NCBI RefSeq assembly: GCF_001677475.2
Contig: NZ_CP015229.1
DNA from: Escherichia coli
GTDB taxonomy: Bacteria; Pseudomonadota; Gammaproteobacteria; Enterobacterales; Enterobacteriaceae
Direction: 5' to 3' (one strand)
Length of the DNA: 64,000 bases
A program made the position numbers and the translations under genes. The notes under the pieces are model-generated. The model ran no database searches and was not told where the DNA came from. It saw only the letters and a list, made by a program, of their open reading frames with translations. The first letter of the stretch is position 1, and each line of letters begins with the position of its first letter. This document shows positions 31,639 through 63,930 of the stretch, piece after piece.

Positions 31639-31646
31639 AGCGAACC

Positions 31647-33587: not shown

Positions 33588-33606
33588 TCTTTCTTCACCT
33601 GCTTTC

Positions 33607-45921: not shown

Positions 45922-46511
45922 TGGATAGTTATATCGCGCTTACACTGTTTGGCTGTTTTTTTGTGCTGGTCTTTATTGGTGTGCCCATTTCGTTCTCAAT
46001 CGGTATTGCCACTGTAGCTTCAATGCTGTTGATGTTTCCCTGGGATATCGCGGCAATCACTGTTTCGCAGCGACTGGCTAATGGACTGGATAACTTTGCC
46101 CTATTGGCAATCCCCTTTTTCATCTTTGCCGGAACGCTGATGAACAGCGGCGGTATTGCGATACGTTTGATTAACCTCGCCCAGGTAATGGTTGGCCGCG
46201 TTCCTGGTTCGCTTGGTCATGTGAACGTCCTGGCGAATATGATGTTTGGTTCCATTTCTGGTTCAGCCGTTGCGGCAGCTGCTGCCGTTGGTGGCACACT
46301 GAATCCCATTCAGACCAAAGAAGGTTATGATCCGGCATTTTCTACCGCTGTAAACGTCTCATCCTGTATTACTGGATTACTGATACCGCCCTCAAACGTG
46401 TTAATTGTGTTTTCCCTGACAGCTGGCGGCGTTTCTGTAGCATCGCTATTTATGGCGGGATATTTGCCAGGGATCTTAATGGGTCTCGCGGTAATGGTTG
46501 TCTGCGCGTAA
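45921..46511 (+). pseudogene. TRAP transporter large permease (DctM family), N-terminal fragment cut by IS66 insertion
   Basis: Only ~196 codons of a normally ~430-aa permease; the frame runs into the IS66 left inverted repeat and stops at a TAA inside it (46509-46511). Confidence 0.7.
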
Positions 46512-46592
46512 GCGTAAACCGACCGCCGTATGTAGCCATTAGACAAGAATTGGTAACTTAGACGCCCATCTGACACAGACGGACATCTAAGT

Positions 46593-47012
46593 ATGGAATT
46601 ACAGGACTGGCGAAAAGAACCTCGTAAAAAGTATTCGAATGAATTCAAACTTCGTATGGTTGAACTGGCATCACAACCCGGTGCTTGTGTGGCTCAGATT
46701 GCACGAGAAAATGGCGTCAATGATAATGTTATTTTCAAATGGCTCAGACTCTGGCAAAACGAAGGGCGTATATCACGGCGTCTTCCGGTGACAACCACTT
46801 CTGATGCAGGCCTTGAATTATTACCTGTAGAGATAACCTCTGATGAGCCGAAAGAACCGATGGCTGCTCTTACTCCGCCCTTATCCACTCAGACTACTGT
46901 CAGTGCCAGCTCCTGCAAGGTGGAGTTCCGTCACGGTAACATGACGCTGGAAAATCCTTCACCAGAGCTGCTCACTGTATTGATTCGTGAACTGACCGGG
47001 AGGGGAAGATGA
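46593..47012 (+). CDS. IS66-family accessory protein (orf1, HTH)
   Basis: 139-aa first ORF of the IS66 triplet. Confidence 0.75.
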   Translation: MELQDWRKEPRKKYSNEFKLRMVELASQPGACVAQIARENGVNDNVIFKWLRLWQNEGRISRRLPVTTTSDAGLELLPVEITSDEPKEPMAALTPPLSTQTTVSASSCKVEFRHGNMTLENPSPELLTVLIRELTGRGR

Positions 47013-47359
47013 TCTCACTCCCATCCGGTACCCGTATCTGGCTCGTTGCCGGGATAACCGATATGCGTAAGTCTTTCAACGGGCTGGGTGAACAGGTACA
47101 GCATGTGTTAAATGTTAATCCCTTCTCCGGTCACCTGTTTATCTTCCGTGGCCGACGGGGTGACACCGTTAAAATTCTTTGGGCTGATGCTGATGGTCTG
47201 TGCCTGTTCACCAAACGCCTGGAGGAAGGCCAGTTTATCTGGCCTGCGGTGCGTGACGGTAAGGTATCCATTACCCGCTCGCAACTGGCAATGCTCCTCG
47301 ATAAGCTGGACTGGCGTCAGCCAAAAACATCCCGCCTTAACGCCCTGACAATGTTGTAA
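47009..47359 (+). CDS. IS66-family accessory protein (orf2)
   Basis: 116-aa ORF overlapping orf1 by 4 bp. Confidence 0.75.
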   Translation: MISLPSGTRIWLVAGITDMRKSFNGLGEQVQHVLNVNPFSGHLFIFRGRRGDTVKILWADADGLCLFTKRLEEGQFIWPAVRDGKVSITRSQLAMLLDKLDWRQPKTSRLNALTML

Positions 47360-47389
47360 AAAACGCCTGGCCGCATTATAAAAACGGCC

Positions 47390-48982
47390 ATGAGTCAGAA
47401 ATACCTCATTCGCATTGCAGAACTGGAAAGCCAGCTCCGTCAGAAAGACCAGCAACTGAGTCTGGTTGAAGAGACGGAGGCCTTCCTGCGCTCTGCACTG
47501 GCACGTGCCGAAGAAAAGATCGAAGAAGATGAACGGGAAATAGAACATCTGCGGGCTCAGATAGAAAAACTGCGCCGGATGCTGTTCGGTACCCGTTCTG
47601 AAAAACTGCGTCGTGAAGTTGAACAGGCTGAGGCCCTGCTGAAACAACGCGAACAGGACAGCGATCGTTACAGTGGGCGGGAAGACGATCCACAGGTTCC
47701 CCGCCAGTTGCGACAGTCGCGCCATCGTCGTCCGTTACCGGCACACCTTCCCCGTGAAATACACCGTCTGGAGTCTGAAGAAAGTTGTTGCCCGGAATGT
47801 GGCGGCGAGCTGGATTATCTGGGGGAAGTCAGTACTGAGCAGCTGGAACTGGTGAGCAGCGCCCTGAAAGTGATCCGCACAGAACGGGTAAAAAAAGCCT
47901 GTACAAAATGTGACTGCATCATTGAAGCACCGGCGCCGTCCCGCCCGATAGAGCGTGGTATCGCGGGCCCCGGATTACTTGCCCGCGTGTTAACGGGAAA
48001 ATACTGCGAACACCTGCCACTGTATCGTCAGAGTGAAATCTTTGCCCGACAGGGTGTCGAACTGAGCCGTGCATTACTCTCCAACTGGGTTGACGCGTGC
48101 TGCCAGTTAATGATGCCGCTGAATGATGCCCTGTACCGTTATGTGATGAATACCCGCAAGCTTCACACTGACGACACACCGGTAAAGGTACTGGCACCGG
48201 GCTTGAAAAAGACGAAAACAGGGCGCATCTGGACGTATGTCCGGGATGATCGCAATGCGGGTTCGTCATCTCCTCCGGCGGTCTGGTTCGCGTACTCACC
48301 GAACCGGCAGGGGAAACACCCGGAGCAACACCTCCGCCCCTTCCGGGGTATCCTGCAGGCGGATGCGTTCACAGGTTATGACAGGCTGTTCAGTGCAGAA
48401 CGTGAAGGTGGTGCGCTGACAGAAGTTGCGTGCTGGGCCCATGCCCGGAGAAAAATCCACGATGTATACATCAGCAGCAAAAGTGCGACGGCAGAAGAAG
48501 CCCTGAAGCGAATCAGTGAACTGTACGCCATCGAGGATGAAATACGGGGATTACCAGAGTCAGAGCGTCTTGCAGTCAGACAGCAGCGAAGCAAAGCGTT
48601 ACTGACGTCGCTGCATGAATGGATGGTGGAGAAGAATGGCACGCTGTCGAAAAAATCCAGACTGGGCGAAGCGTTCAGCTATGTACTGAATCAGTGGGAC
48701 GCCCTCTGTTATTACAGTGATGACGGACTGGCGGAGACGGACAATAACACAGCGGAAAGAGCGCTTCGTGCAGTCTGTCTTGGAAAGAAAAATTACGTGT
48801 TCTTCGGTAGCGATCACGGTGGCGAGCGTGGTGCACTGCTATACGGGCTGATCGGCACCTGCCGTCTGAACGGTATCGATCCGGAAGCGTATCTGCGCCA
48901 TATTCTGAGCGTACTGCCGGAATGGCCCTCCAACCGTGTTGACGAACTCCTGCCATGGAACGTGGTTCTCACCAATAAATAA
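47390..48982 (+). CDS. IS66-family transposase (orf3)
   Basis: 530-aa ORF with N-terminal coiled coil, CxxC zinc region and DDE-type core. Confidence 0.8.
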   Translation: MSQKYLIRIAELESQLRQKDQQLSLVEETEAFLRSALARAEEKIEEDEREIEHLRAQIEKLRRMLFGTRSEKLRREVEQAEALLKQREQDSDRYSGREDDPQVPRQLRQSRHRRPLPAHLPREIHRLESEESCCPECGGELDYLGEVSTEQLELVSSALKVIRTERVKKACTKCDCIIEAPAPSRPIERGIAGPGLLARVLTGKYCEHLPLYRQSEIFARQGVELSRALLSNWVDACCQLMMPLNDALYRYVMNTRKLHTDDTPVKVLAPGLKKTKTGRIWTYVRDDRNAGSSSPPAVWFAYSPNRQGKHPEQHLRPFRGILQADAFTGYDRLFSAEREGGALTEVACWAHARRKIHDVYISSKSATAEEALKRISELYAIEDEIRGLPESERLAVRQQRSKALLTSLHEWMVEKNGTLSKKSRLGEAFSYVLNQWDALCYYSDDGLAETDNNTAERALRAVCLGKKNYVFFGSDHGGERGALLYGLIGTCRLNGIDPEAYLRHILSVLPEWPSNRVDELLPWNVVLTNK

Positions 48983-49012
48983 GCGTCAATACGGTGCTCC
49001 GTTGACGCTTAC

Positions 49013-49624
49013 GGCCAGCGATACATACTGAGAACCTTTATCACTGTGATGGATTGTGCCGGACGGCCGACGGGCCCACAACGCCTGCTCCAGTGCATCC
49101 AGCACGAATGTTGTTTCCATGGATGATGAGACCTGCCATCCCACGATGTATCCGGCGAACACATCAATGATGAACGCCACATAAACGAAGCCCTGCCATG
49201 TGCTTACCCAGGTAAAATCAGCCACCCACAACTGGTCTGGACGTTCTGCCACGAACTGACGGTTTACGCGGTCGCATGCGGCAACGGCTTTCCGGCTGAC
49301 GGTAGTGCGGACCTTTTTACCCCGGAGAACACCGGCAAGTCCCATAACTGCCATGAGACGTGCCACAGTGCATCTGGCCACTCTGATACCTTCCCGTAAC
49401 AACTGACGCCAGACTTTACGCACACCGTATACCTGGTGATTTTCATCGTATACGCGCTGTATCTCTTTCTTCAGCCAGTCATCGTGCTGCGCACGGGCAC
49501 TGCGTTTATCCGGATGATGTCGCTGTTGCTGACAATGGTAATACGTTGACGGGGCAATATGCAGTTCGCTGCATACCGGTCCGACCCCGTACTGCTCACG
49601 CAGCTTATCCAGCAGTGGCATCAT
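49013..49624 (-). pseudogene. IS3-family transposase OrfB, 3'-truncated
   Basis: About 200 of ~296 expected codons; the frame terminates inside the abutting IS66 sequence. Confidence 0.7.
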
Positions 49625-49947
49625 TTTTTCCAGAGGCGGTCGAACTCCGCCTTCGCAAAATAAGCGGAAGCCTGGCGAAGGATATCGTTACTGCGGCGCA
49701 GTTCACGATTTTCACGTTCCAGCTCTTTCAGACGCTGACGTTCAGCGCTGGTGAGCCCACCATCACCGCCCCCGGTATCCCGCTCATGCTGGCGAACCCA
49801 GACACGCAGAGTCTCCGGCGTACAGCCAATCTTTGGGGCAATGGAACAAATTGCCGCCCACTGTGAGTCATATTCATCCTGACTTTCCAGAACCATACGA
49901 ATCGCCCGCTGACGGACTTCGGGGGAAAAACGAGTATTTTTAGTCAT
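49621..49947 (-). CDS. IS3-family transposase OrfA (IS629-like)
   Basis: 108-aa HTH/leucine-zipper OrfA starting [22 protein letters not shown]. Confidence 0.8.
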
Positions 49948-50040
49948 CCTGTTTACCTCTTTCTCAGGGAGTTTAGTCTCCAGGATTTCCGGGGCGGTTC
50001 AGAGCAGCAACTCAGGGCGCTGCTGACACCCTCACCGGAT

Positions 50041-50550
50041 GTGCTTTCAGCAGACCAGATGATGCAGCTCAGCAGAACACTGTTAAATCATGCGTCAGAG
50101 TGGATAACCCTTTCCGGTCAGCAGATAACGCGACTGACAGAATTCCCCCCGGCATACAACCTGCAACGCAGTGTGCAATTGCTGCAGCAACTGATGGTAC
50201 TTTTCCCCGACAATCCTCGTGTTCAGGAAATGGTGGATAACTGGCAGAAGAGTGCAAGGAGTCGTGCGCTCCCGGAAGAGGCGATGACTGGCTGGAACGA
50301 AGGCATGACCCGCTTACAGCTGTTGGCTGAGCGCCTGAACCGTCCAGATGAACAGCGGGGAAAATACATGACGGTCAGTGAGCTGAAAACGGAGGTGTCT
50401 GGCATCATGCAGGCTTTTAACCGGCATATCCTGGCAGAAGAACAGTTGTGTCACTATGGTGAAGTCCGCAACCAGAATGGAAGCGAGCAGCAGCAAAAAC
50501 AAATGAAAGATGCATTTGTTAAGCTGATTCATTTTTACTGTTTTATATAA
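50041..50550 (+). CDS. Hypothetical protein, possibly the 3' remnant of a gene disrupted by the IS3-family element
   Basis: 169-aa ORF from a GTG; the same frame stays open upstream across the IS boundary at 50001. Confidence 0.3.
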   Translation: MLSADQMMQLSRTLLNHASEWITLSGQQITRLTEFPPAYNLQRSVQLLQQLMVLFPDNPRVQEMVDNWQKSARSRALPEEAMTGWNEGMTRLQLLAERLNRPDEQRGKYMTVSELKTEVSGIMQAFNRHILAEEQLCHYGEVRNQNGSEQQQKQMKDAFVKLIHFYCFI

Positions 50551-50603
50551 AGCCTTTAGGATGTGGGGTAAGGGGAGTGTTGCAATTTATTCGGTGAGAT
50601 AGT

Positions 50604-51311
50604 TTGTTTGTGGAGTGTTTAAGCGCTTTTGGATGTTCGTCTGTTGTTTCGAATAGTATGGTGAATATGAATGGTAAATATAATGTCAGGAGTGAATTGT
50701 TAGCTCGTTGTATCGGAACTGGTAGATTGAAAGGAGATGTGAGAAGTGATTTTATTGGGTTTAATGGTAGTAAACAGGTAGGTTATGTTTTATTAACTTT
50801 ATTCTTAACGAAAGTAACAAATTCTGATTTGCTCTCTCATTATCGTATATTTAATCGTTTTTTGCATTATGAGAGAAAAGTTATGGACATATATAATTCT
50901 TTGAGTGATATAGAAGTTGATTGTATTTGCCAGGAAGTGATGGCTATATATGAACATACTCAGCGATGCTGCAACGAAAAGAAAATCACAACTATCCAGT
51001 TAGGCAGGAAACTTAATGGCAGGTATGCAGATACGATTGCTGAGTTAAAAGAAACAGCAGAGATAAGAGGGGAGGATGTGATTTCTTTTGAGATGGATAT
51101 ATTGAATTCTTTTAATGATGCGGATGAATATCACGGACGTGTTAAACTGGAGTTGGATATACCTGCTTCAGATATATTATATTGCCATGATTTTATTGAT
51201 TCAAAACATGTAAACTCCTGGTTGGTTGAACCACATGAGTGGGTGGTTATAAATCGTTCTCTCAATGGGATTGTTACAGTGCCAGTATCATCAATAAAGA
51301 TTCTTTATTGA
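50604..51311 (+). CDS. Hypothetical protein (AT-rich gene)
   Basis: 235-aa ORF in a markedly AT-rich stretch; no recognisable motif. Confidence 0.35.
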   Translation: MFVECLSAFGCSSVVSNSMVNMNGKYNVRSELLARCIGTGRLKGDVRSDFIGFNGSKQVGYVLLTLFLTKVTNSDLLSHYRIFNRFLHYERKVMDIYNSLSDIEVDCICQEVMAIYEHTQRCCNEKKITTIQLGRKLNGRYADTIAELKETAEIRGEDVISFEMDILNSFNDADEYHGRVKLELDIPASDILYCHDFIDSKHVNSWLVEPHEWVVINRSLNGIVTVPVSSIKILY

Positions 51312-51451
51312 TAAATATGTTTGTAATATGTTTTATATGTTCATCAGGATGAAAGTAAGCAATTTTAGTAGTGGCTAATTAAACGTCATTTAATGTTTGT
51401 TGCTATATGTTGAAAGCATAAACAGGTTTCTTTTGCATAAAGTAAAAATAA

Positions 51452-52684
51452 ATGAATGATAATTTTTTAACGGAGAAAGTCCTTACTGGAGAGAATGTTC
51501 TGCGTGCAGCAATTGCTCGTATTGAGTGGATTTTTGAAACATTTCCATCAGTTTGTCTCTCTTTTTCCGGTGGTAAAGATTCCACCGTGCTTTTCCATCT
51601 TGTGGCTGATGTGGCCCGCAGGAAAAGACGTCGTTTCTCTGTACTGTTCATTGACTGGGAGGCTCAGTACCAGTGCACCATTGAACATATTCAGAAGATG
51701 CGGGAAATGTACTATGATGTGACGGAAACCTTTTACTGGGTGGCGCTTCCCCTGACCACGGTAAACGGTGTCTCGCAGTTTCAACCGGAGTGGATATGCT
51801 GGGAGCCTCGTGTGACCTGGGTTCGCCAGCCACCGGAAGAGGCCATTACGGATATGGCGTATTTTCCCTTTTACCGGTATGCCATGGCGTTTGAAGAATT
51901 TGTTCCGGCATTTTCTTCCTGGTTTGCTGGCAACCGGTGTGGAGTGGCAGTGCTGACCGGTGTCCGGGCGGATGAATCCCTCAACCGCTTTATGGGACTG
52001 GTGTCCCAGCGCAAACTGAGATATGCCAATGATAAGCCTTGGACCACGGCATCGCCTGAAGGGTTTTACTACACTATGTATCCGCTGTATGACTGGAAAA
52101 CTCGTGATATCTGGATATATCACACCAGAACCCGTGCCATCTACAATCCCCTGTATGATCTGATGTACCGTGCCGGCGTACCGTTACGCAACATGCGTGT
52201 CTGTGAACCTTTTGGTCCTGAACAACGTAAGGGACTGTGGCTTTACCATGTTCTGGAACCGGAAACCTGGGCCAGGATGTGTGAGCGGGTGTCAGGGGCT
52301 GCCAGCGGGGCACTTTATGCCAATGAAAGCGGGGCTTATTTTGCCCTGCGTAAGCGCATATCAAAACCAGCCCATCATACCTGGCGCAGCTATGCGATGT
52401 TTCTGCTGGATGTGATGCCGGAAAGAACGGCAGAACATTACCGCAACAAGATAGCTGTCTATCTGCGCTGGTATCAGACGCGGGGCTTCCCGGATGACAT
52501 CCCGGATGAACAGGAGAATGACCTGGGGAGCCGGGATATTCCGTCCTGGCGACGTATCTGTAAGACTCTCATAAAGAATGATTTCTGGTGCCGTACCCTC
52601 TCCTTCAGTCCGAACAAACCCCGGCACTATGAACGTTATCTGCAGCGTATGAAAGAAAGGAGGAAGGAATGGGGGATTCTGTGA
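51452..52684 (+). CDS. PAPS-reductase-family PP-loop protein (IbrA-like)
   Basis: 410-aa ORF with PP-loop SFSGGKDS near the N-terminus; overlaps the following ParB-like gene. Confidence 0.7.
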   Translation: MNDNFLTEKVLTGENVLRAAIARIEWIFETFPSVCLSFSGGKDSTVLFHLVADVARRKRRRFSVLFIDWEAQYQCTIEHIQKMREMYYDVTETFYWVALPLTTVNGVSQFQPEWICWEPRVTWVRQPPEEAITDMAYFPFYRYAMAFEEFVPAFSSWFAGNRCGVAVLTGVRADESLNRFMGLVSQRKLRYANDKPWTTASPEGFYYTMYPLYDWKTRDIWIYHTRTRAIYNPLYDLMYRAGVPLRNMRVCEPFGPEQRKGLWLYHVLEPETWARMCERVSGAASGALYANESGAYFALRKRISKPAHHTWRSYAMFLLDVMPERTAEHYRNKIAVYLRWYQTRGFPDDIPDEQENDLGSRDIPSWRRICKTLIKNDFWCRTLSFSPNKPRHYERYLQRMKERRKEWGIL

Positions 52685-53307
52685 CACCGGAGATACTGAG
52701 CAACATGATTCGTCAGTACTTCAGCCAGGAACGACCAGAAGAAGAGGCCATACAGGCCCTGAATCATCTGCGCAGGGTGCTTCATGAGGTCAGTCCATTT
52801 GCACAGGAGCCTGTGGACTGTGTGCTGTGGGTGAAAGCAGATGAGGTGGTGGCCAACGATTATAACCCCAATGTCATGGCGCCGGGTGAGAAGAAACTGC
52901 TGAAACATTCACTGGAGCAGGATGGGTTCACGCAGCCTGTGGTTGTCTCGGAAGAGAAGGAGCATTATCTGGTCGTGGATGGTTTTCATCGTCAATTACT
53001 GGGCAGGGAAGCAGGTACGGGAAAACGCCTGAAGGGCTGGTTGCCAGTGACCTGTATTAATCCGGAAAGAAAGGGACAGGCCTCACGTATTGCTGCAACC
53101 ATTAGACATAACCGGGCCAGGGGGAAGCACCAGATAACTTCAATGTCTGATATTGTCAGGGACCTGTCGCGGCTGGGCTGGACGGATGAACGTATTGGTA
53201 CGGAGCTGGGTATGGACCAGGATGAAGTTCTCAGGTTGAAACAGATTAGCGGGCTGACGGAGCTGTTTCTGGAAGAGGATTTCAGTCCGGCATGGACGGT
53301 TCGCTGA
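52669..53307 (+). CDS. ParB/sulfiredoxin-domain protein (IbrB-like)
   Basis: 212-aa ORF containing VVVDGFHRQ (ParB N-terminal DGxHR-type motif); 16-bp overlap with the upstream gene. Confidence 0.65.
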   Translation: MGDSVTPEILSNMIRQYFSQERPEEEAIQALNHLRRVLHEVSPFAQEPVDCVLWVKADEVVANDYNPNVMAPGEKKLLKHSLEQDGFTQPVVVSEEKEHYLVVDGFHRQLLGREAGTGKRLKGWLPVTCINPERKGQASRIAATIRHNRARGKHQITSMSDIVRDLSRLGWTDERIGTELGMDQDEVLRLKQISGLTELFLEEDFSPAWTVR

Positions 53308-53385
53308 GACCGTCATATATGTATATTATTTCAGTGAGTTAATGTTTTGAGCAGGAAAAAGAGTACCCCGGAAGTCGTGGAAGAC

Positions 53386-53655
53386 ATGGTTGCACAGAAG
53401 CTGGAGGCTGCGGGTTGCTGGCGCAGAGCTTCCGCCCGCTGGCTTTTTGTTATGGGAAATGTTGAATGTACAGAAGCACAACGGGAGTGGTTGTTGTTGC
53501 GCAGGAATTATTGCCTGGCGCAGATATCGTCCCCGCCGCTACCTGAAAAGCTGGATATCAGCGAAGTGGCGAAAGCTGCAGATGCCACGCTGAGGCGAAT
53601 GGGGATTGCCAGTCCGTCCGGGGAGGTATTCAGAAAAGGTACACCGGTCTGTTGA
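53386..53655 (+). CDS. PerC-family-like small transcriptional activator (tentative)
   Basis: 89 aa from ATG at 53386; GCWRRASARW...REWLLLRRNYCLAQ resembles PerC/Pch-type regulators as recalled; the ORF track starts it at an upstream TTG (53347). Confidence 0.4.
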   Translation: MVAQKLEAAGCWRRASARWLFVMGNVECTEAQREWLLLRRNYCLAQISSPPLPEKLDISEVAKAADATLRRMGIASPSGEVFRKGTPVC

Positions 53656-53675
53656 TATTCAGGTAACAGGTATTA

Positions 53676-54320
53676 ATGATAAAGAAAGGAATGGCAAACA
53701 GTATATCAATGACATGGCAACTTTTATGCGATGATCATGGTTTTACCCGGGAGCACTACAATCAGCTGAAGAAATTCAGCCCGGAGGCATTACGTGAAAT
53801 TATTGCTGAAATAGCCTGCTGCCATCCGTCAACCAGTATATTGCTCAGGAATAAGTGGCTGACACCGCCGGAGGATATTCCGGAGCAGGTTACCCGTGAA
53901 TACGAACGAAGAATACAGAACTGTCCATCTTTCAGGAGCGAGAAAGAGGCGGAATCCTGGCTAAATGAACTGTTTTTTGCTGTGATTGCGCCGCTATACC
54001 GGGTTGTCCCCGGACAATCAGAACAGGTTGAATCCTTTGTTCTGCAGCTTATTGCCGAACAGGAGCGGGTTTGGGAGCTTATTCTAACCAATGATGGTTA
54101 TTCATGGCATTGCGCACTTTATGATATATTATTTCATCTGGTTTTACGAAATATGGAAGACCAGCCTGAACATCAGAGACAGCGAATAACAAAAATACTT
54201 AATGAGTCCGATACAAGGCGGGTTGCAGAAGAGATTAAATTCCGGATTCAATATCTTCAGGATGAAGAACAAAAGAGAGTTTTAAGTGAGTTGGTAAATG
54301 TCCTGATTTCAAAAAGATAA
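53676..54320 (+). CDS. Hypothetical protein
   Basis: 214-aa ORF, no recognisable motif. Confidence 0.4.
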   Translation: MIKKGMANSISMTWQLLCDDHGFTREHYNQLKKFSPEALREIIAEIACCHPSTSILLRNKWLTPPEDIPEQVTREYERRIQNCPSFRSEKEAESWLNELFFAVIAPLYRVVPGQSEQVESFVLQLIAEQERVWELILTNDGYSWHCALYDILFHLVLRNMEDQPEHQRQRITKILNESDTRRVAEEIKFRIQYLQDEEQKRVLSELVNVLISKR

Positions 54321-54384
54321 AACATGTCGGAGTAATTTTTCTATATATTAAAAAAACAGGTTCGTATTACCATAAAGGAGATCG

Positions 54385-54708
54385 GTGAGTAACCGTTATT
54401 GGATGATCTCCTTCCATAAAAATACGCGCAATCTAACGGTTTGCTCTGTGCCAAAAAAAGACATTGCTCACAATATCGAGTTAATCATTCGGCCGTTGAA
54501 CATTCCCATTGAAAAATTTCTCAGTATAGAATATACCAATGTTGAGGGCATTCCTCTTACATCTCGAAGGATAACTATCATGGGTCTAAAACCAGGTCCA
54601 AAACCAATTGCTAAGTCAACAGGAAAACCGGATCAACGCCGACGCGATAATAAAGATACTCCTGGCAATACTCCGGGATTAAAGCCAAGTAAGTCCACAG
54701 GTAAGTAA
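54385..54708 (+). CDS. Hypothetical small protein, doubtful
   Basis: 107-aa ORF with Pro/Lys/Gly-rich C-terminus; convergent with the helicase gene. Confidence 0.25.
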   Translation: MSNRYWMISFHKNTRNLTVCSVPKKDIAHNIELIIRPLNIPIEKFLSIEYTNVEGIPLTSRRITIMGLKPGPKPIAKSTGKPDQRRRDNKDTPGNTPGLKPSKSTGK

Positions 54709-54715
54709 AAAATAA

Positions 54716-54740
54716 GGGTATAAATACTTATTTATACCCT
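54716..54740. terminator. Hairpin between convergent genes
   Basis: 11-bp perfect stem gggtataaata/tatttataccc with loop ctt, placed between the 54385-54708 ORF and the helicase gene stop. Confidence 0.5.
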
Positions 54741-54755
54741 GACTACATATCCAGT

Positions 54756-56954
54756 CTACTGAAGGTGTTTCTGCAGCCAGATGCACGTTCCTTTTATATC
54801 ATACGCCTGTGCCCCATACCCTTTAGCAAGCAAAGTCTCTGGTAAATACTCGTCATATTTATCCAGATACTTGTCGGGAACAACTGCAGCAAGCTCAAAC
54901 TCTGAAGGTAGCCCCGACAATAGCATTTTCTTAAGTGCACGCTGGACAGAGGCAACGCCTGAGTCCTCTACCTCTATCACACCTGCAAATGAACTGGCTT
55001 TAAAGCCACAACGTATAATCAGGGACGTAATTGTATTGACAATTTTATCCCCCATCCACGGGATCACGTAGCAGTTCTGACCACTGGCAATAAAACAGTC
55101 ATTTTGTAGATTGTAGCGTTGGAAGTTGTCACTTCCTTCCGCGAAGAGGCTTCTGGCTGCGGCATCAGCATAATCGACTCTCTTGTTGCCTACCGCGATA
55201 CGGTAATCATTTTCCCTGTAGATAGTGAGCATTTCCTGGCGAACAACATCATGAACAGACATCCCGGTACCACTGAATAGTGGCGGCTGACCGCCTTTAG
55301 TCGTCTCAACATAGATAACCTTTTTTTCAACCTCGATCTCTGTCACTTTCCAGCGCCGTCCGCCGAAGATGATGTGCTGCTCCGGCAAAAGTGGGGAGTC
55401 TACAGGCACTGTGCCAAGAGTTCGGTTTCCCGTTACAATGCGAAACTCCTCAGGTGTATTGAATACGGCATAAAACGTGTAGTGATTAGTCAGCTTCTCC
55501 CCCTCAGCCCCGACAACTATTTCACCGCTGGTTAGTTGAGTGAGCAGGCCACATGTCCCCATATGTTTAAGCAGACTTTTGAAGTCATTTATATCCACAT
55601 TCCGGAACGGACCTGTCTGGCAAAGTTGTGACCAGAGCTGATCGGCACGAACACCTCCCCATTGCGCAGTAATAGCCAGGATCTGGTGTAGTAGTGTGGA
55701 GTAATGTTTCTGCCGGATATCTGCAGGCTCGAACCAGCGCTTAGAGATCATCAACCTGATCATTGCCATCGCCTGAACCAACTGCAGCCGTAAATGATCC
55801 ACAATGCTGCTGGTTGCGGTAAGTTCAGGTTCAGTAATTAACATTCTCAGCACCGATGGGGAATCGCGCCGCCCTGAACGTCCCATGCGTTGACGCAGAC
55901 TGGAAACAGAATGCGGAGGTGTCACTTGTATGACAGACTGCACCTTACCAATATCAATACCCAGCTCCAGCGTCATTGTACAAACAGCGGTTGTGGGCAA
56001 ATTCCCTTTCTGCAGTCGGGCTTCAAGCGCCTCACGCAACTCCCTTGCAAGGGAACCATGATGAGGAAAGAATTCATTAGGAACGACATTTGCTTCACAC
56101 ATGTCGCTCAGTGTTGCCGCTATGCTTTCAGTACGCTTTCGACTGTTAGCAAAGACCAGGTGGGAATCGCCACGGCAGAGCCTGAAAATATCCGCGCAGA
56201 CGAGCTGTTCAGCAGAGCTCTGGAGCTCTTCTCCTTTTTCGGGCACCCGCTCAAGATAACCTTTAACCTGAACCTGTAGTGTGGCTTTGCTATTACTGTC
56301 TGTTACCGTTTCACAAGGTAATCTCTTATCCGGGCGCAATAGTTCTGGTACTTTTTCCAGCTCTCCCAGCGTGGCACTCAACGCGACACGGGGAACTGGA
56401 TTCAACTGGCGTCCCAGCACATGGTCAATTCTGTTAAGCAGAGAAAGCAGCTGTATACCACGCTCTGAGCCAATAAAAGCATGGAACTCATCAATAACAA
56501 TGTATGCCACAGAAGAAAACGCCTGTTTGAGCCAACCCAATGAGTTTATGAGCAAAGACTCAAGTGATTCAGGTGTGATAAGTAAGATGCCAGAAGGGGT
56601 TGTCCGTGCTTTCTTCTTTTTGCTTTGTGGTACATCCCCGTGCCAGGGCGTCACTTGCATTTCCAGGGCTTCACCAAGACTCTCAAGACGACGGTGTTGA
56701 TCGTTAATTAATGCCTTCAATGGACTGATATAGATAATGCCAAATCCACCAGTGAGATCTGCAATCGCTGAACAGGCAGGAAGAAAGAAAGCCTCTGTTT
56801 TACCCGCAGCTGTACCTGCACTAATTAGTACATCACGATCACGGGCTAAAATTGCCGGAATAGAGCTTTCCTGCAAGGGCCTTAAGGATGACCAGCCCTG
56901 CTTATAAACCCACTTACGGACACGGGGATCAAGACTATTGTAGGCACTACTCAT
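54756..56954 (-). CDS. DEAD/DEAH-box (Lhr-like) helicase; third gene of the candidate defence operon (SngC-like)
   Basis: 732-aa ORF with helicase motifs: Q (LRPLQ), I (AGTAAGKTEAF), II (DEFHAF), III (SAT), VI (QRMGRSGRR); overlaps the upstream ATPase gene by 4 bp. Confidence 0.8.
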   Translation of the reverse strand: MSSAYNSLDPRVRKWVYKQGWSSLRPLQESSIPAILARDRDVLISAGTAAGKTEAFFLPACSAIADLTGGFGIIYISPLKALINDQHRRLESLGEALEMQVTPWHGDVPQSKKKKARTTPSGILLITPESLESLLINSLGWLKQAFSSVAYIVIDEFHAFIGSERGIQLLSLLNRIDHVLGRQLNPVPRVALSATLGELEKVPELLRPDKRLPCETVTDSNSKATLQVQVKGYLERVPEKGEELQSSAEQLVCADIFRLCRGDSHLVFANSRKRTESIAATLSDMCEANVVPNEFFPHHGSLARELREALEARLQKGNLPTTAVCTMTLELGIDIGKVQSVIQVTPPHSVSSLRQRMGRSGRRDSPSVLRMLITEPELTATSSIVDHLRLQLVQAMAMIRLMISKRWFEPADIRQKHYSTLLHQILAITAQWGGVRADQLWSQLCQTGPFRNVDINDFKSLLKHMGTCGLLTQLTSGEIVVGAEGEKLTNHYTFYAVFNTPEEFRIVTGNRTLGTVPVDSPLLPEQHIIFGGRRWKVTEIEVEKKVIYVETTKGGQPPLFSGTGMSVHDVVRQEMLTIYRENDYRIAVGNKRVDYADAAARSLFAEGSDNFQRYNLQNDCFIASGQNCYVIPWMGDKIVNTITSLIIRCGFKASSFAGVIEVEDSGVASVQRALKKMLLSGLPSEFELAAVVPDKYLDKYDEYLPETLLAKGYGAQAYDIKGTCIWLQKHLQ

Positions 56955-58267
56955 AATCTGAAATTCGCCAGGCCATCATCGTCATCACTTTCCTCCACAA
57001 TGGCATCATCCATATCGCTGAGCTTGTCTTCTTCAATCGCCACCCCCTCAATGAGGGTTTGCCAGTTCATCGTTCTGTTTTGTTCCAGCACAGCCAGCAT
57101 ATCCAGAAAACCTTTTATGGTATTGCGGGGAGTTCGAAAGTAAGCATCTCCGATGGTTTTGCTGCAGTGATGCAGAAACCCGGTCAGAGCATCATCTGGC
57201 ACCAGATAATTTGCGGGATCTCCACCAGCATAAACATGACGAAGGTTTTTCAGTAAAATATACAGTTCCTCAGGAGTGAGGCTGGCAAGATGCAGCGTGG
57301 GGGACGAGTAGTCAATCACGCCAGCTTTCTGTGCGAATCGGTTTTCTGCCAGACGCGACTGGAGCGCTTCATAGCTGTAGAGCCCCTTACGTGGATCGAA
57401 AAGAAATTCTGGCGTCCCCCCGAGGATAAAACCAATATTTTCGGCGGAGCCTTGCAGGCAGTCATTCAGGATCCGCAAAATTTGTTCGTAGTTGGCCGTT
57501 CTCGCTTGCGTATTATTCAACTTGAAGAGGTTCACCATCTCGTCGAGGCTAACTAAAAGTCCGGCATAGCCTGCCTGACGGACAAAAAGGCTCATCAACT
57601 TCAAAGAATCATAGAACGAGGCGTCTGAGATAATCGTTCGGACGTCAAGATCATTACGGGCATCAGTTTTTGTGGTGTACTCGCCCCGCAACCAGCGAAT
57701 AGCATTGGATTTTAAGGTTTCGTTATCCTGCTCATGCCCGCGCCAGAATGCGTCAATGACCTTCGCAAAGTCATATCCTCCCACCATATCTGACAAAGCA
57801 GCAAGGCGTTTATGAATAACGGATGAGACCAGGGAGCCGTTCGCATCAGCTTCCTTCCTTGCCTCAGTAACAAACCTTTCCACAACGCTAAGTAATGCAT
57901 TGCCATCTGGTTTGTTTCTGGTGGACATATTTTTCATAAGCTCTGAGTAGAGATTACGAGCCTGACCTCCCGATGAGTGGATACGTCTGTCGGGAGAAAG
58001 GTCTGCACTGACCGTGACCAGCTTCTTCTCTAACGCAATAGACCGTACAACACTTAAAAAGAATGTTTTCCCGGAACCGTACTCACCAATGATAAGTCTG
58101 AAGCTTGCCCCGCCATCAGCAATCCGTTCAATATCCTGATGGAGGGCGGTTATCTCATTCACGCGGCCAACCTGGATATGCTGAATACCTATTCTTGGCG
58201 TTACTCCCGACTTAAGTGACTGAATGATAGCGTCGCGCTCTTTCACTCTTATACGTGTTACAGACAT
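56951..58267 (-). CDS. P-loop ATPase; second gene of the candidate defence operon (SngB-like)
   Basis: 438-aa ORF with Walker A GEYGSGKT and Walker B-like LLVSLDE; 3 bp from the upstream gene stop. Confidence 0.75.
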   Translation of the reverse strand: MSVTRIRVKERDAIIQSLKSGVTPRIGIQHIQVGRVNEITALHQDIERIADGGASFRLIIGEYGSGKTFFLSVVRSIALEKKLVTVSADLSPDRRIHSSGGQARNLYSELMKNMSTRNKPDGNALLSVVERFVTEARKEADANGSLVSSVIHKRLAALSDMVGGYDFAKVIDAFWRGHEQDNETLKSNAIRWLRGEYTTKTDARNDLDVRTIISDASFYDSLKLMSLFVRQAGYAGLLVSLDEMVNLFKLNNTQARTANYEQILRILNDCLQGSAENIGFILGGTPEFLFDPRKGLYSYEALQSRLAENRFAQKAGVIDYSSPTLHLASLTPEELYILLKNLRHVYAGGDPANYLVPDDALTGFLHHCSKTIGDAYFRTPRNTIKGFLDMLAVLEQNRTMNWQTLIEGVAIEEDKLSDMDDAIVEESDDDDGLANFRL

Positions 58268-58270
58268 TCA

Positions 58271-60580
58271 CTAACCCTCTAATTCTTTGGCTATTTCCAG
58301 GTCAATCCAAATGTGATCATCAGCATCTTCCAGCACTGGTGCATCAACCACCGCATAGGACCAATCGTTAATCACCTCAAGCGCACCGCCGAGCATCAGG
58401 TTCCAGTTACTACACAACTCTGTCGCCTCTTTTCTGGACCATTGTTCTTTCTCCAGCAACCTGCGATAAAGTTGGCTATGAGCGGAGTCAAGTCCCCCTT
58501 CCCCGGTTAATGAGGCTGGAGCGCTTTCTGGTTGTTCTGGTTCTTCTTCAGTGAAAATTGAGTTCAGTAATTTACGAACATCATCAGTGGCAGATTCGTG
58601 GCGGGCAAGTACGTTGGCATCCAGCGTAAACCCTGCCGTCGACTGATTAGCTGGTACAGATGAAACGAGAGCAGTTTCAGTTGCGGAATGCTGATGGATA
58701 TTGCTTGATACGGATGAGGGATCCAGTCCCAGGCTTGTATAAATCTTCTCAAGCTGTTTGATTTCGGCAGGCGTAATTCTGCCGTCAGAGCAAGCGACAC
58801 TAACGATAACCTTACCCACAGCTGATTTTTCCGCTGCACCGAGTAATTCAATCCGGCTTTTCATTCCCGTCATATTCGCCGGAGTATGAAGCTGCCACGT
58901 TAAATATGCGTGCAGAGAGCGCTTTTCATCATCGCTGAAGCTGGCATTGTTGTTGATGGCATTCTCAAGCACTTTCTGTTCGGCTTGATCGAGAGAATTG
59001 TCAATCAAGGCGACTACCGAACCTAATCGGAGCGTCAATACAGCTGTGATAAATTCAGGAGAAGGTGAGAAACGTCCTCTTTCACCAGCAGGGAATAAAA
59101 CAAGTACACCATCGACATCTGCCTTTACGTGGTGGTGATAGGGGTCAGGAGCCAGACAGTATCCCATTTTCTGTGCAAAGGCTTGCATTAAGTCGGCCTC
59201 TTTTTTATTGATCTTCGCCGGACAGGTGGCATTCATATGTGACCAGTAGTCAGCAACTGAAACTATCCCACCCTTACTGCGGATTGCGTCATCAGCCCAG
59301 TGTTTGAATGTACTTAATATTTTTTCTGCGCTTTCGTTAACGATTTCTGAAGGCAGCAACAAAATTGCAGCGGTATCATTTGCTGAAGTACCTTTTCTAC
59401 CAAGGTAACGACTGTAAGCATCCAGTTCACCTGTGCATATATCGGCAATGGCCATAAGCTTCTGAACAGGGCCTTTCAATGCACCTGGATCAGGCAAGTC
59501 GGGAACAGGAAGCCGAATACCTCGCAAACTGGGACTTGCAGGCGTGTAATCTAAACGCAGACGCGCTTTATTCGGCTTCACTACCATCCCTTCACCGTAT
59601 TTAAGGGTGTAACGCCGTTTAAATAGTGCAGCAAATTCTTTCGCACAGCGGCGGGCGGGGGTTCGTAATGAGTATTCAGCATGGTTTGTCACCCACGTCA
59701 GAGCCAGATCCGCTGGAACCGGGGCTCCTGTATCAACAGTCTTTGCCAGGATTAACCTGAACTGCATGCTATTGCTGAACTCCGAATCATCGTTGAGAGC
59801 TGCTGCAAGATTTTCGTTCGGACGAAGAATGGACATCGCTTCAAGTAACTGGGATGAGTAATTCCGGAAAGATCGGTTTTCATTGAAAACCGATCTGAGA
59901 CGGCAGATCTCTTTGAAAAGAGAATAGAACTCATCGTCGGATATATTGTTGTCCCTGCTGTCAACAAGCGCCCTTCTTTCCAGACCATACAGATAAATGA
60001 AAACGTAACCAATTGGGCAGGAAGTGTCGCATCTGTCGCTGGCAAGCCAACTCAGGTACGCACCACGAGCTTCAGGTGAAAGTGAGGAAAAACTGGGCCA
60101 ATACCCTAATGAACTATCTTCGTAAATGTAAGGTGTGGGGGATATTTTAAGCGTGTCGTCAACTAGCGATGCCTCGTTATTGCCATCATAATAACCGCCT
60201 GAGTTATGCCCGGCAGGTTTCATACGCTGCCCAAGATAGAAGTGACCGCCGGTAACCTCTATCCCACTGACTGTGATCATCTCTCCCGGAAAAATCCAAC
60301 GAGCCAAAGCACCGGTAGTTTTTGAGAAATTCTGGCGTTGAGTGGCTGTTATGCTGTATTCGACATTCCGCCCGCCACTTAGTGTAAACGTAGCCAGATT
60401 GTCATCTTCGCTGTCCTCGTTTTGCATTACAGACTGATTTTTTTTGTTGTTAGCAAGCCATTCTTTAGGTGGTGCTTTCACAGGAGCGGAAGTATAAGAG
60501 CCCGCGGACTTAGTTTTCTTCTTTTTGAAAAAAAGAATATAAATCAAATAAATAGCTACTATAAATATCCATAACTCCAT
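58271..60580 (-). CDS. Membrane-anchored protein with TerB-like motif; first gene of the candidate defence operon (SngA-like)
   Basis: 769-aa ORF; N-terminal hydrophobic helix (ELWIFIVAIYLIYILFF) then KKKK; internal segment VIVSVACSDGRITPAEIKQLEKI resembles the TerB-type xxADGxxxxxExxxL helix. Confidence 0.6.
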   Translation of the reverse strand: MELWIFIVAIYLIYILFFKKKKTKSAGSYTSAPVKAPPKEWLANNKKNQSVMQNEDSEDDNLATFTLSGGRNVEYSITATQRQNFSKTTGALARWIFPGEMITVSGIEVTGGHFYLGQRMKPAGHNSGGYYDGNNEASLVDDTLKISPTPYIYEDSSLGYWPSFSSLSPEARGAYLSWLASDRCDTSCPIGYVFIYLYGLERRALVDSRDNNISDDEFYSLFKEICRLRSVFNENRSFRNYSSQLLEAMSILRPNENLAAALNDDSEFSNSMQFRLILAKTVDTGAPVPADLALTWVTNHAEYSLRTPARRCAKEFAALFKRRYTLKYGEGMVVKPNKARLRLDYTPASPSLRGIRLPVPDLPDPGALKGPVQKLMAIADICTGELDAYSRYLGRKGTSANDTAAILLLPSEIVNESAEKILSTFKHWADDAIRSKGGIVSVADYWSHMNATCPAKINKKEADLMQAFAQKMGYCLAPDPYHHHVKADVDGVLVLFPAGERGRFSPSPEFITAVLTLRLGSVVALIDNSLDQAEQKVLENAINNNASFSDDEKRSLHAYLTWQLHTPANMTGMKSRIELLGAAEKSAVGKVIVSVACSDGRITPAEIKQLEKIYTSLGLDPSSVSSNIHQHSATETALVSSVPANQSTAGFTLDANVLARHESATDDVRKLLNSIFTEEEPEQPESAPASLTGEGGLDSAHSQLYRRLLEKEQWSRKEATELCSNWNLMLGGALEVINDWSYAVVDAPVLEDADDHIWIDLEIAKELEG

Positions 60581-60780
60581 GAGGCAGTAACCTTAAAAAT
60601 AGCTTTTCACGCACACCAAAAAGGATGACGATGGGAAGTGGATTAATCTCAAAATAATACTTCTAAATTAAAAAGGTTAAAAGCAAATCACAACCTTCCT
60701 GAGCTTCCGCTTTTCTCTTTCAGAGGGCTGAAGTCGTTATCTGTAACCAGAGGAGATCAGTAGCCCGTTATGCCAGCTAA

Positions 60781-60881
60781 AGCACTCCGGGCAGATTGCC
60801 CGGAGTGCTTAATATTTTAATGGATTGTTAATCTTCGCATACTCAAAGGGGCTGGTATTTTCTTTCGAGTTTGTATCCAGA
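60781..60881 (-). repeat. Hairpin plus remnant of a gene 3' end, homologous to the sequence at 63904-64000
   Basis: 13-bp perfect stem agcactccgggca/tgcccggagtgct; the following 67 bp align at ~75-80% identity with 63934-64000; minus-strand translation ...SPFEYAKINNPLKY* versus ...SPFEYAKINNPLKQ*. Confidence 0.5.
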
Positions 60882-61100
60882 AAATCCCCCCACCACTGTA
60901 GCATCAACCGACGCTATTCCAGGTGTTCTGTTTTATGGATATAAGCCGCCCTTAATGAATTACGTTCCATGTGGCTCATCTGACGTTCAGCCGCTTTATC
61001 TCGTGCTGTTTTGGTCTTAATACTTCCATGCCGCTGCGATTACCTCTTAAACCCGCCCTTACCATTTTTATGGGTACGATAAGAAAACTTTATCGGGCAC

Positions 61101-61126
61101 GATCGATTTTATCGATCGATTCGATC
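61101..61126. promoter_or_regulatory. Cluster of three GATC (Dam) sites in a palindromic tract upstream of the outer-membrane protein gene
   Basis: cacGATCgattttatcGATCgattcGATCgaaaac; GATC at 61101, 61114, 61123; ~95-115 bp upstream of the ATG at 61218. Confidence 0.3.
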
Positions 61127-61217
61127 GAAAACATTCCTTTTACCCTATCTTTTGCATGGTTTTAGAATGAGCAACCCCATTTATCGTTCGGGGAAAGTGA
61201 TAGCGGAGATGATTGAA

Positions 61218-61958
61218 ATGAATAAGGTTATTGCGGTTTCAGCGCTTGCCATGGCAGGCATGTTTTCGACCCAGGCTCTGGCTGATGAGAGCAAAACAGG
61301 CTTTTATGTGACCGGTAAAGCAGGTGCTTCTGTTATGTCACTTGCAGACGAGCGTTTCCTGTCGGGTGATGGAGAGGAAACATCAAAATATAAAGGCGGT
61401 GATGGCCATGATACGGTATTCAGTGGCGGTATCGCGGCCGGTTATGATTTTTACCCGCAGTTCAGTATTCCGGTTCGTACGGAACTGGAGTTTTACGCTC
61501 GTGGAAAAGCTGATTCGAAGTATAACGTAGATAAAGACAGCTGGTCAGGCGGTTACTGGCGTGATGACCTGAAGAATGAGGTGTCAGTCAACACACTGAT
61601 GCTGAATGCGTACTATGACTTCCGGAATGACAGTGCATTCACACCATGGGTATCTGCAGGGATTGGCTACGCCAGAATTCACCAGAAAACAACCGGTATC
61701 AGTACCTGGGATTATGGGTACGGAAGCAGTGGTCGCGAATCGTTGTCACGTTCAGGCTCTGCTGACAACTTCGCATGGAGCCTTGGCGCGGGTGTCCGCT
61801 ATGACGTAACCCCGGATATCGCTCTGGACCTCAGCTATCGCTATCTTGATGCAGGTGACAGCAGTGTGAGTTACAAGGACGAGTGGGGCGATAAATATAA
61901 ATCAGAAGTTGATGTTAAAAGTCATGACATCATGCTTGGTGTGACTTATAACTTCTGA
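61218..61958 (+). CDS. Outer-membrane beta-barrel protein (family unassigned)
   Basis: ATG at 61218; signal peptide MNKVIAVSALAMAGMFSTQALA; alternating aromatic/hydrophobic strands; C-terminal ...VTYNF. Confidence 0.6.
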   Translation: MNKVIAVSALAMAGMFSTQALADESKTGFYVTGKAGASVMSLADERFLSGDGEETSKYKGGDGHDTVFSGGIAAGYDFYPQFSIPVRTELEFYARGKADSKYNVDKDSWSGGYWRDDLKNEVSVNTLMLNAYYDFRNDSAFTPWVSAGIGYARIHQKTTGISTWDYGYGSSGRESLSRSGSADNFAWSLGAGVRYDVTPDIALDLSYRYLDAGDSSVSYKDEWGDKYKSEVDVKSHDIMLGVTYNF

Positions 61959-62109
61959 CAAAACTGCTCCTGAAAGATAATAATTACCCATCTTCTGTAA
62001 TTAAACGAAGACTCCCTGCAGTAATTATACTGCAGGGTTGTTTGTTATCTGTTTCACAGGAGACTTCTGATTTTTATTCTCTTCACAATAATGTTGTCGA
62101 TATACTCCG

Positions 62110-63609
62110 ATGAATATCAGAAAGCTGTTTTATACGGACAATATATCCCGGATTTTATTGTTTTTATTCTTCCCGGGCATGTGTGTAATAACCACTGCCG
62201 CATGCGGATACACTGAGAAGAATGCCACCGGGAATGTGTTGCTGCTGTTTCTCCTTCTGATTCTTGCACACAGAAATACCCTTACATCCATTACAGCTCT
62301 GTTATTTCTGTTCTGTTGTGCACTGTATGCACCTGTCGGTATGACGTACGGAAAAATCAACAACAGTTTTATTGTCGCGTTGTTGCAGACCACGGCGGAT
62401 GAGGCTGCGGAGTTTACCGGGATGATTCCTGTTTATCATTTTCTGGTCAGTGCCGCGATTCTGGTGTTCATGGTTATTTTCTGGCGGACACACCACCGTG
62501 GTCAACGTAACGCGATGGCTCTGTTGTTATTCGTATTATGCTCTGTAAACAGCTGGCCGTTACGGATGGTTAAAGGAACAGTTGTGGGGACAACTGACAC
62601 ATTGCGTGAAATGCAGCGTTATGAACAACTGAGTCGGCACGGTGCTGACAGCTGGAAAATCCTGCCGGGAGCACCATTATATGACACGATTGTTATTGTT
62701 ACTGGTGAGAGTGTCCGCAGGGATTATATGTCGGTATATGGTTATCCCGAGCCAACCACACCATGGCTGAATACGGCTCCCGGTTTATTTATTGACGGTT
62801 ATACATCGGCAGCAGCCAGCACCGTGCCTTCCCTGAGCCGGACACTGATTTATGACTATGAGCAGAACCCTGATTCCGGCAACAACGTGGTGGCGCTGGC
62901 AGCAAAAGCAGGATACAGCACATGGTGGATATCCAATCAGGGAAAACTGGGAGAGCATGACACACGCATCTCTGTTATTGCTTCTGATGCGGACCATACT
63001 GTTTTCCTCAAGAAAGGCAGCTTTGCTTCCCGTAAAACGGATGACATGTTGTTGTTACAGGAAACAGAACGTGCGCTGGCAGATACATCCACTCCGAAGG
63101 TGATTTTCCTGCACATGATGGGGTCTCATCCGAACCCGTGTGATCGGCTTCACTCCTGGCAGAATAATTACCTGGAGCAGTATTCCCGAAAAATTGCCTG
63201 TTATCTTGCCAGCATCAGTAAACTGGATAACTTTCTTGGTCAGCTTGATGGTATCCTTCGCCGACACTCACGTCATTTCGCCATGCTTTACTTTTCTGAC
63301 CATGGGCTGTCGGTCAGCGACAGTGCTAATCCTGTTCATCATGATGGTCATGTGCAGGGAGGCTACAGCGTGCCCCTGATTATTACCGCCAGTGATATAA
63401 CCTCTCATCAGTCCCTCAGCAGAAAAATCAGTGCCCGTCATTTCACAGGTATTTTTCAGTGGCTGACCGGTATTCGTACCGAAAATATACCGCCATTCAA
63501 TCCACTGACAGACGAAGATAATGAACGCATTATGGTTTTTAACGGAGAGAGGTATGTACAGGAAGACAGTCTGAAACCGCAGCCGCTTATTCTTCCGGAC
63601 CACAGGTAA
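62110..63609 (+). CDS. Phosphoethanolamine-transferase-like membrane protein (sulfatase / alkaline-phosphatase superfamily)
   Basis: 499-aa ORF with N-terminal TM helices and the sulfatase-type segment IVIVTGESVRRDYMSVYGYP. Confidence 0.6.
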   Translation: MNIRKLFYTDNISRILLFLFFPGMCVITTAACGYTEKNATGNVLLLFLLLILAHRNTLTSITALLFLFCCALYAPVGMTYGKINNSFIVALLQTTADEAAEFTGMIPVYHFLVSAAILVFMVIFWRTHHRGQRNAMALLLFVLCSVNSWPLRMVKGTVVGTTDTLREMQRYEQLSRHGADSWKILPGAPLYDTIVIVTGESVRRDYMSVYGYPEPTTPWLNTAPGLFIDGYTSAAASTVPSLSRTLIYDYEQNPDSGNNVVALAAKAGYSTWWISNQGKLGEHDTRISVIASDADHTVFLKKGSFASRKTDDMLLLQETERALADTSTPKVIFLHMMGSHPNPCDRLHSWQNNYLEQYSRKIACYLASISKLDNFLGQLDGILRRHSRHFAMLYFSDHGLSVSDSANPVHHDGHVQGGYSVPLIITASDITSHQSLSRKISARHFTGIFQWLTGIRTENIPPFNPLTDEDNERIMVFNGERYVQEDSLKPQPLILPDHR

Positions 63610-63930
63610 TCATATATGGCAAACTGTAATACAGTTGCTTGTACTGAAAAGTATTCTGTATAAAACAGAATCCGTATTCATATCAGCACAAGGGACCACC
63701 AAATCCCGGCAGTATTCCTTACGTCAGTTATCCCGCATCACTCTGTGAGTGAGTTTTTTTATGAGGTTACTTTTTCATTGAATATAAATAATGAATAACC
63801 GCAGATTCTGATAATCCTCCTCCAGGGAACAATCAGGTAAACAGTAAATACATCAGTTAATACCATTTTGTCTTTTTAACAAAGAAAATATTCATGGAGT
63901 AAGTTCCCGGGCATTTGCCCGGGATGATTA

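Follow-up and report, generated by a model that had tools for sequence, protein, structure and literature searches.

Given an open reading frame (ORF) that runs up to the very end of an insertion sequence (IS), one may ask whether it encodes a protein in its own right or whether it is what remains of a larger gene into which the element inserted, and, in the latter case, whether it was the insertion that put an end to that gene. The ORF that raises this question lies in a stretch of 64,000 nucleotides of Escherichia coli DNA (contig NZ_CP015229.1; hereafter "the window"), the features of which are collected in Table 1. An earlier inspection of the letters alone (the sequence-only reading) had described a 169-aa ORF called from a GTG at 50041, with its frame open in the 5' direction as far as an IS3-family terminus at 50001. 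The ORF listing, the translation and a comparison of the junction confirm this description: the frame is stop-free from 50002 to the TAA at 50548-50550, without internal stop or frameshift, and its peptide starts with EQQLRALLTPSPDVLSADQMMQ. Considering the evidence below, we regard it as highly probable that 50002-50550 is a non-functional 3' remnant of tagA (vasL), which would have been lost in the sequence of events that we propose. The openness of the frame is in itself weak evidence for this and acquires meaning only through homology, because the 13 stop-free codons upstream of the GTG have a chance probability of ~0.49 at the local base composition and because the same frame stays open for 45 further codons inside the IS, back to 49867, a part that cannot be ancestral coding sequence.

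Table 1. Features of the window around the tagA remnant, with strand and basis of the assignment
Feature	Coordinates	Strand	Basis or remark
TRAP-transporter large permease (dctM family), 5' part, 196 codons	45921..46507	+	Pfam; ORF runs into IS66 end
IS66-family element, complete, 2,507 bp	46508..49014	+	ORFs; identity to annotated IS66/ISEc23-family copies
IS66 tnpA	46593-47012	+	ORF, 139 aa
IS66 tnpB	47009-47359	+	ORF, 116 aa
IS66 tnpC	47390-48982	+	ORF, 530 aa
IS629/IS1203-like IS3-family fragment, 987 bp	49015..50001	-	Terminal sequence, junction, ORFs, transposase matches
tagA/vasL-type T6SS accessory gene, 3' remnant	50002..50550	+	182 codons + stop; whole VasL domain kept
Mechanically called 169-aa ORF	50041-50550	+	GTG start; ORF listing
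Shango SngC (DEAD-box helicase)	54756-56954	-	PADLOC
Shango SngB (BrxC/D-type ATPase)	56951-58267	-	PADLOC
Shango SngA (TerB_N/TerB/TerB_C)	58271-60580	-	PADLOC

Homology of the remnant to TagA-class proteins

The 182-codon frame matches the Pfam family VasL (PF12486) with an E-value of 6.4e-30 and a score of 104.5 bits against a cutoff of 27.3 bits, such that residues 39-177 cover positions 2-141 of the 147 positions of the profile. Full-length relatives of the remnant also carry an ImpA_N domain (PF06812), which Pfam does not detect in the window ORF, and the 5' part of tagA is found nowhere else in the window. A protein search with the remnant returned mostly E. coli fragments of 100-317 aa. 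When a full-length relative served as the query, over 100 proteins of 430-465 aa were recovered that possess both ImpA_N and VasL. It is to residues 266-455 of these proteins, composed of ImpA_N, a hydrophobic segment and VasL, that the remnant aligns, corresponding to their C-terminal 40%; with the 455-aa protein encoded at the sci-1 cluster of EAEC 042, residues 266-449 align at 82.6% amino acid identity. In a 455-aa relative the Kyte-Doolittle maximum falls on residues 235-253, upstream of the IS cut after residue 265; the hydrophobic or transmembrane segment is lost from the remnant, which begins ten residues past it.

The proposal that the ORF is the 3' remnant of a larger gene is borne out by this colinearity with more than 100 longer proteins, and aligning the 169-aa ORF with related proteins, as the sequence-only reading had suggested, places it in the C-terminal part of proteins of 430-465 aa. 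Nor are its homologues all of ~170 aa with a start corresponding to 50041, the outcome that would have spoken for a gene of this size, and the VasL proteins of ~170-184 aa in other E. coli are truncation products as well. The 163-aa ORF of EAEC 042-type strains is the portion 3' of a frameshift in a full-length gene, and the VasL copy of UPEC 536 is flagged "missing N-terminus" in its annotation (a pseudogene in PGAP).

The TagA class consists of TssA-like T6SS accessory proteins with ImpA_N followed by a hydrophobic region (PMC6745524). What the class does is known from work on the full-length protein only: TagA of EAEC is described as a membrane-associated, TssA-binding protein that stops the extended sheath and holds it (PMC6745524, PMC6450956, PMC6730261), and a tagA mutant has a residual antibacterial activity of ~12% (PMC6730261, PMC6450956). 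The final position in a tssF-tssG-tssJ-vgrG...tssE cluster is occupied by the intact homologue P0114. T6SS genes are absent from the window, where the neighbors of the remnant are IS elements, ibrA/ibrB-like genes, perC, Shango and an eptA-like gene. Judged by its domain content and surroundings, the window sequence is best classed as a fragment of a TagA-family gene and not as a family member in its own right. A PADLOC scan of the remnant gave no match, and when a full-length relative was searched against PDB sequences, only weak ImpA_N/TssA matches and no solved VasL domain came up.

IS629, IS66 and the junction with the core genome

The IS end at 50001 can be fixed from both sides. On the + strand the IS terminus reads ...CCGGGGCGGTTCA and is followed directly by GAGCAGCAAC; at the same site, IS-free alleles (L001, L002 and L004) read ...TCACCGGCG, again followed by GAGCAGCAAC, and are colinear across the insertion point, which lies between tagA codons 265 and 266. 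IS1203/IS629 copies from elsewhere (L005 and L006) are identical up to ...GGTTCA and diverge beyond it. By megablast, IS1203 matches end at 50001-50003 and matches to the IS-free locus begin at 50002, L005 2414-3407 being 96.2% identical to window 49013-50007. Some IS1203 matches (O26 and other strains) reach 16-26 nt past 50001; since their extended flanks are unrelated prophage/effector loci with chance similarity, the IS end stays at 50001. Membership in the IS3 family is seen in the terminal inverted repeat TGAACCGCCCCGG... and in a terminus identical to that of annotated IS1203 copies, and the fragment as a whole is 96-99% identical to annotated IS1203-family elements. In IS629/IS1203-like elements, orfA and orfB are joined via a programmed frameshift. 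The copy in the window retains its left inverted repeat, ending at 50001, and an intact orfA (49621-49947; 108 aa) that is overlapped by orfB; orfB is truncated, and ~320 bp including the other terminus are missing, the second IS629 end and its flank, next to which a short target-site duplication of 3-4 bp would be expected, being absent from the window. None of 5,426 complete E. coli genomes covers the junction between IS629 and tagA, the exact 44-nt junction has no match in 100,044 GTDB species-representative genomes, and the exact 169-aa protein has no record in the assembly collection.

The element that truncates orfB belongs to the IS66 family, as seen from its tnpA-tnpB-tnpC genes and its GTAAGCG... 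terminal repeats, and is 93-96% identical to copies annotated as TnpA, TnpB and IS66 transposase (IS66/ISEc23-family). Its ends read GTAAGCGTAAAC... and ...GTTGACGCTTAC; the left end interrupts dctM and the right end IS629. No 8-bp target-site duplication surrounds it, the flanking 8-mers being different (GTCTGCGC versus GGCCAGCG); a related IS66 copy (L002, AREA_492) has the perfect 8-bp duplication GGTTTTCA on both sides. Since the flanks differ, the present junctions arose by rearrangement and not by simple insertion, and the missing duplication indicates a rearrangement after insertion, not that the element falls outside the family. The idea of a simple IS insertion into a larger gene thus holds for the insertion and fails for its simplicity, with an IS629 copy cut by an IS66-family element that abuts core dctM.

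On the core-genome side of this junction, the dctM fragment matches positions 1-186 of the 413 in the Pfam DctM profile (PF06808) with an E-value of 2e-52. With EAEC 042 as the reference, the core part (2346-44073) proves colinear, and the island part (50002-64000) is inverted and runs toward the integrase and pheV; the window ends within the pheV-island integrase. A repeat search across the whole window revealed no second copy of IS66 or IS629. Most simply, a single inversion of ~30 kb with its endpoints in dctM and in the IS629 copy within tagA would explain this arrangement, as the orientation of the two parts suggests. As the mark of a likely chromosomal inversion, the IS66 junction could confuse synteny-based comparison of the strain.

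Four short non-IS segments of the window (13010-16290, 21653-22905, 25931-27730 and 28728-29662) have no counterpart in the colinear core region of EAEC 042; among their products are a PCC-domain protein with a transporter set of the ECF/ABC type, an SPFH/Band 7 protein and a DUF1266 protein, and one ORF has no family match.

The pheV-island copy and a proposed order of events

The remnant is 99.3-99.6% identical at the nucleotide level to IS-free alleles on pheV islands, and the 14 kb that follow on its right match an orphan module on these islands at 99.4-99.8% identity, with EAEC 042, JE86-ST05, SLK172, H3, SA31-1, BEC1 and Bongo among the carriers. Complete genomes that cover the region number about 320. 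The order on the islands is exonuclease, tagA, hypothetical, ibrA, ibrB, perC, two hypotheticals, Shango sngCBA, an outer-membrane protein gene, an eptA-like gene, integrase and tRNA-Phe. This shows that the remnant belongs to the orphan pheV-island copy of tagA, within a module that duplicates the one ending the sci-1 T6SS cluster. On a wider scale, none of 5,426 complete E. coli genomes exceeds 98.2% identity to the core part 30000-46507 of the window, and several reach 99.8% with the island part (50002-64000); it seems that the host belongs to a sparsely sampled lineage, or to an Escherichia other than E. coli or to Shigella, and that its pheV island was recently shared.

What was the state of this copy when IS629 arrived? 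All eight sampled genomes with the window-type 3' allele (99.3-99.6% nucleotide identity) carry, with no IS, a frameshift caused by a 16-nt indel, with the sequence GATCTCCTTCCATGAAAATACGCAGGCTTGGCACG in place of the in-frame form GTGACACACTGGCCCGGCACG. The frameshifted form is terminated after codon 146; in AREA_492 the stop comes earlier, after codon 72, and the VasL part there contains a nonsense codon as well. In the protein database search, proteins with at least 99% identity to the remnant do not exceed 288 aa, and the pheV-island tagA copy adjoins no T6SS core genes. Because the frameshift is present in each of the eight sampled carriers and no near-identical protein exceeds that length, we regard the pheV-island copy as a pseudogene that is fixed in the lineage to which this allele belongs. 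The gene was thus probably dead before the IS arrived, a statement about the window that draws on its relatives, given that the relevant 5' region is missing here and that tagA alleles are mosaic (P0002 and P0005 combine segments of both allele types).

Taken together, these observations suggest a history in four steps. First, the pheV-island tagA would have gained the 16-nt indel frameshift after approximately codon 142, a change that we infer to have been present in the ancestor of the window. Second, the IS629/IS1203-like element inserted between codons 265 and 266, and third, the IS66-family element inserted into orfB of IS629, two insertions that can be read directly from their junctions, while their place in the series is the one that we propose. 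Fourth, an IS66-mediated rearrangement would have joined the IS66 copy to core dctM; its junctions and the inverted orientation are visible in the window, and its form would most simply be the ~30 kb inversion, spanning dctM, pheV and tagA and arising either by IS66 recombination or by intramolecular transposition. Such an inversion would have moved the 5' part of tagA, along with the remainder of IS629, beyond the window, and it predicts a reciprocal junction outside the window with the flanking 8-mers GCGCAGAC and CGCTGGCC.

The sequence-only reading had assumed that the IS destroyed an intact gene and its function. The status as a remnant stands; the killing of an intact gene probably does not, given the frameshift in all eight sampled carriers. 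That IS629 itself inactivated an intact, functioning tagA is unlikely in our estimation: the insertion does lie inside a coding sequence with an undamaged remnant frame, intact 455-aa copies occur in other contexts and, as alleles recombine (P0002, P0005), this 3' allele may conceivably have had an intact 5' half, but the frameshifted 5' half of every sampled carrier, the upper length of the near-identical proteins and the location of the pheV-island copy away from T6SS core genes all argue against it.

It is very unlikely that the fragment has been retained as a stand-alone VasL protein of ~165-180 aa, starting at GTG 50041 or ATG 50059, for a function of its own. In RefSeq, the relatives begin at the ATG matching window 50059 and are listed as ordinary proteins of 163 aa, yet homology extends 5' of both starts, across the hydrophobic segment and as far as codon 1 of the 455-aa proteins, and neither GTG 50041 nor ATG 50059 or ATG 50062 is preceded by a Shine-Dalgarno-like sequence. 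No promoter-like site was found on the + strand within 49800-50750, and IS629 orfA and orfB lie on the strand opposite to the remnant and thus direct transcription away from it. The intact frame in the window, the many E. coli in which RefSeq lists 163-184-aa "VasL domain-containing proteins" as ordinary genes, and the persistence of a C-terminal fragment behind differing truncations (by IS629 in the window, by what is left of a transposase in UPEC 536, and in POTRA or TssK fusions) could be taken as signs of retention; against them stand the nonsense codon within the fragment of AREA_492 and the pseudogene status of the UPEC 536 copy in PGAP. Moreover, dN/dS is 0.32 between the remnant and functional copies versus 0.36 between functional copies in the same region, which would place the divergence before the truncation and offers no indication of separate constraint; two synonymous differences are all that is seen within the allele. 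Without ImpA_N, membrane segment, recognizable promoter or ribosome-binding site, the remnant would be expected to do nothing. One may still speculate, with hardly any confidence, that a VasL fragment made by read-through or IS-derived transcription competes, for instance, as a soluble protein with full-length TagA and alters the stopping of the T6SS sheath, a thought motivated by the VasL fragments with intact frames that lie behind several independent 5' truncations in E. coli islands. Lastly, an ORF that arose by chance without coding ancestry has practically no probability left, for although 13 open codons are expected about half of the time and the frame continues for 45 codons into the IS, 182 open codons have P ~4e-5, and the reading is refuted by the VasL match and by 83-85% amino acid identity to full-length T6SS proteins.

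Annotation, island neighbors and known tagA loci

In our reading of the ORF as a dead tagA remnant, its proper label is tagA/vasL pseudogene fragment and not "VasL domain-containing protein". Its biological weight is small: it is one more IS-disrupted relic in the mosaic pheV pathogenicity island, of a gene that was very probably already dead.

The annotation of its full-length counterpart raises a point of its own. RefSeq/PGAP divides the sci-1 tagA-type gene (L013:14070-15437; L004:4206-5573) into three pseudogene pieces, namely an ImpA_N part "missing C-terminus", a POTRA domain fragment and a VasL part "missing N-terminus", over a frame that is open across all 455 codons. This looks like an artefact, and one that affects an experimentally studied gene. 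We considered whether the "POTRA/ShlB fragment" of PGAP reflects an older chimera and rejected this, as it lies in the tagA frame, inside the continuous 455-codon ORF of EAEC 042 and MLI114. Separately, chimeric ORFs do occur in other E. coli, combining POTRA_2/POTRA_3 or TssK with VasL (P0076, P0190), and UPEC 536 has a VasL remnant directly 3' of cdiBAI (L003:4508-5465). It seems that island recombination often has its junction at this tagA/vasL 3' end of the T6SS cluster.

Several neighbors of the remnant deserve mention. PADLOC identifies a complete Shango anti-phage system at 54756-60580 (- strand), with E-values of 2.5e-99 for SngA, 8.7e-187 for SngB and 4.6e-278 for SngC. The ibrA-like protein has weak PADLOC matches to BrxP and DndC (E 3e-7 to 9e-4). 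Just 3' of the remnant, a 235-aa ORF (50604-51311, + strand), AT-rich by eye, has no Pfam or PADLOC match and is conserved, under the name "hypothetical protein", in all pheV-island relatives. The module of exonuclease (3'-5'), tagA, hypothetical(s), ibrA-like (PAPS-reductase/DUF3440), ibrB-like (ParB_N) and perC, to which window 51452-53307 belongs, occurs twice in EAEC 042, after sci-1 and in the pheV island.

The closest known counterpart of the remnant is the tagA pseudogene on EAEC 042-type pheV islands, represented in RefSeq by WP_001403216.1 (the ImpA_N ORF) and WP_306308238.1 (the VasL ORF). The two share the allele and the neighbors (hypothetical, ibrA/ibrB-like, perC, Shango, eptA-like, integrase and pheV). 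In the EAEC 042-type pseudogene, however, all of the ~1,350 bp are kept, split by the 16-nt frameshift at an IS-free site, whereas in the window IS629 and IS66 sequence takes the place of the entire part 5' of codon 266.

The second comparison is with TagA of the EAEC sci-1 (T6SS-1) cluster, a 455-aa ORF at NC_017626.1 4884070-4885437 that is identical in MLI114. In EAEC 042, the uninterrupted 455-codon ORF at the end of sci-1 is followed by two hypotheticals, ibrA-like, ibrB-like and perC. We identify this ORF with the TagA of the published experiments because no other ORF beside the sci-1 core genes has both ImpA_N and VasL, and from its locus tag, which we take to be EC042_4550. The remnant is colinear with it at 82.6-84.9% amino acid identity and 89.8% nucleotide identity over the VasL part, and both have the downstream module ibrA-ibrB-perC. 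Unlike the remnant, which comprises residues 266-455 only, sci-1 TagA is full length and lies beside T6SS core genes.

More distant is TagA of Vibrio cholerae (VCA0121), a class B TssA-like protein with ImpA_N followed by a hydrophobic region, as in the ancestral gene of the remnant (PMC6745524). In sequence the two are far apart, V. cholerae and E. coli TagA sharing 19.3% identity (PMC6745524). The VasL remnant beside cdiBAI in UPEC 536 resembles ours in being 5'-truncated at an island junction, with 91.8% nucleotide identity over 401 bp; it differs in being truncated at the equivalent of window position 50101, in the transposase fragment that lies after cdiI upstream of it and in its downstream genes. 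In this comparison, the remnant is a relic that EAEC 042-type pheV islands possess as well, annotated there piecemeal, and to it the window adds a strain-specific truncation by IS629 and IS66.
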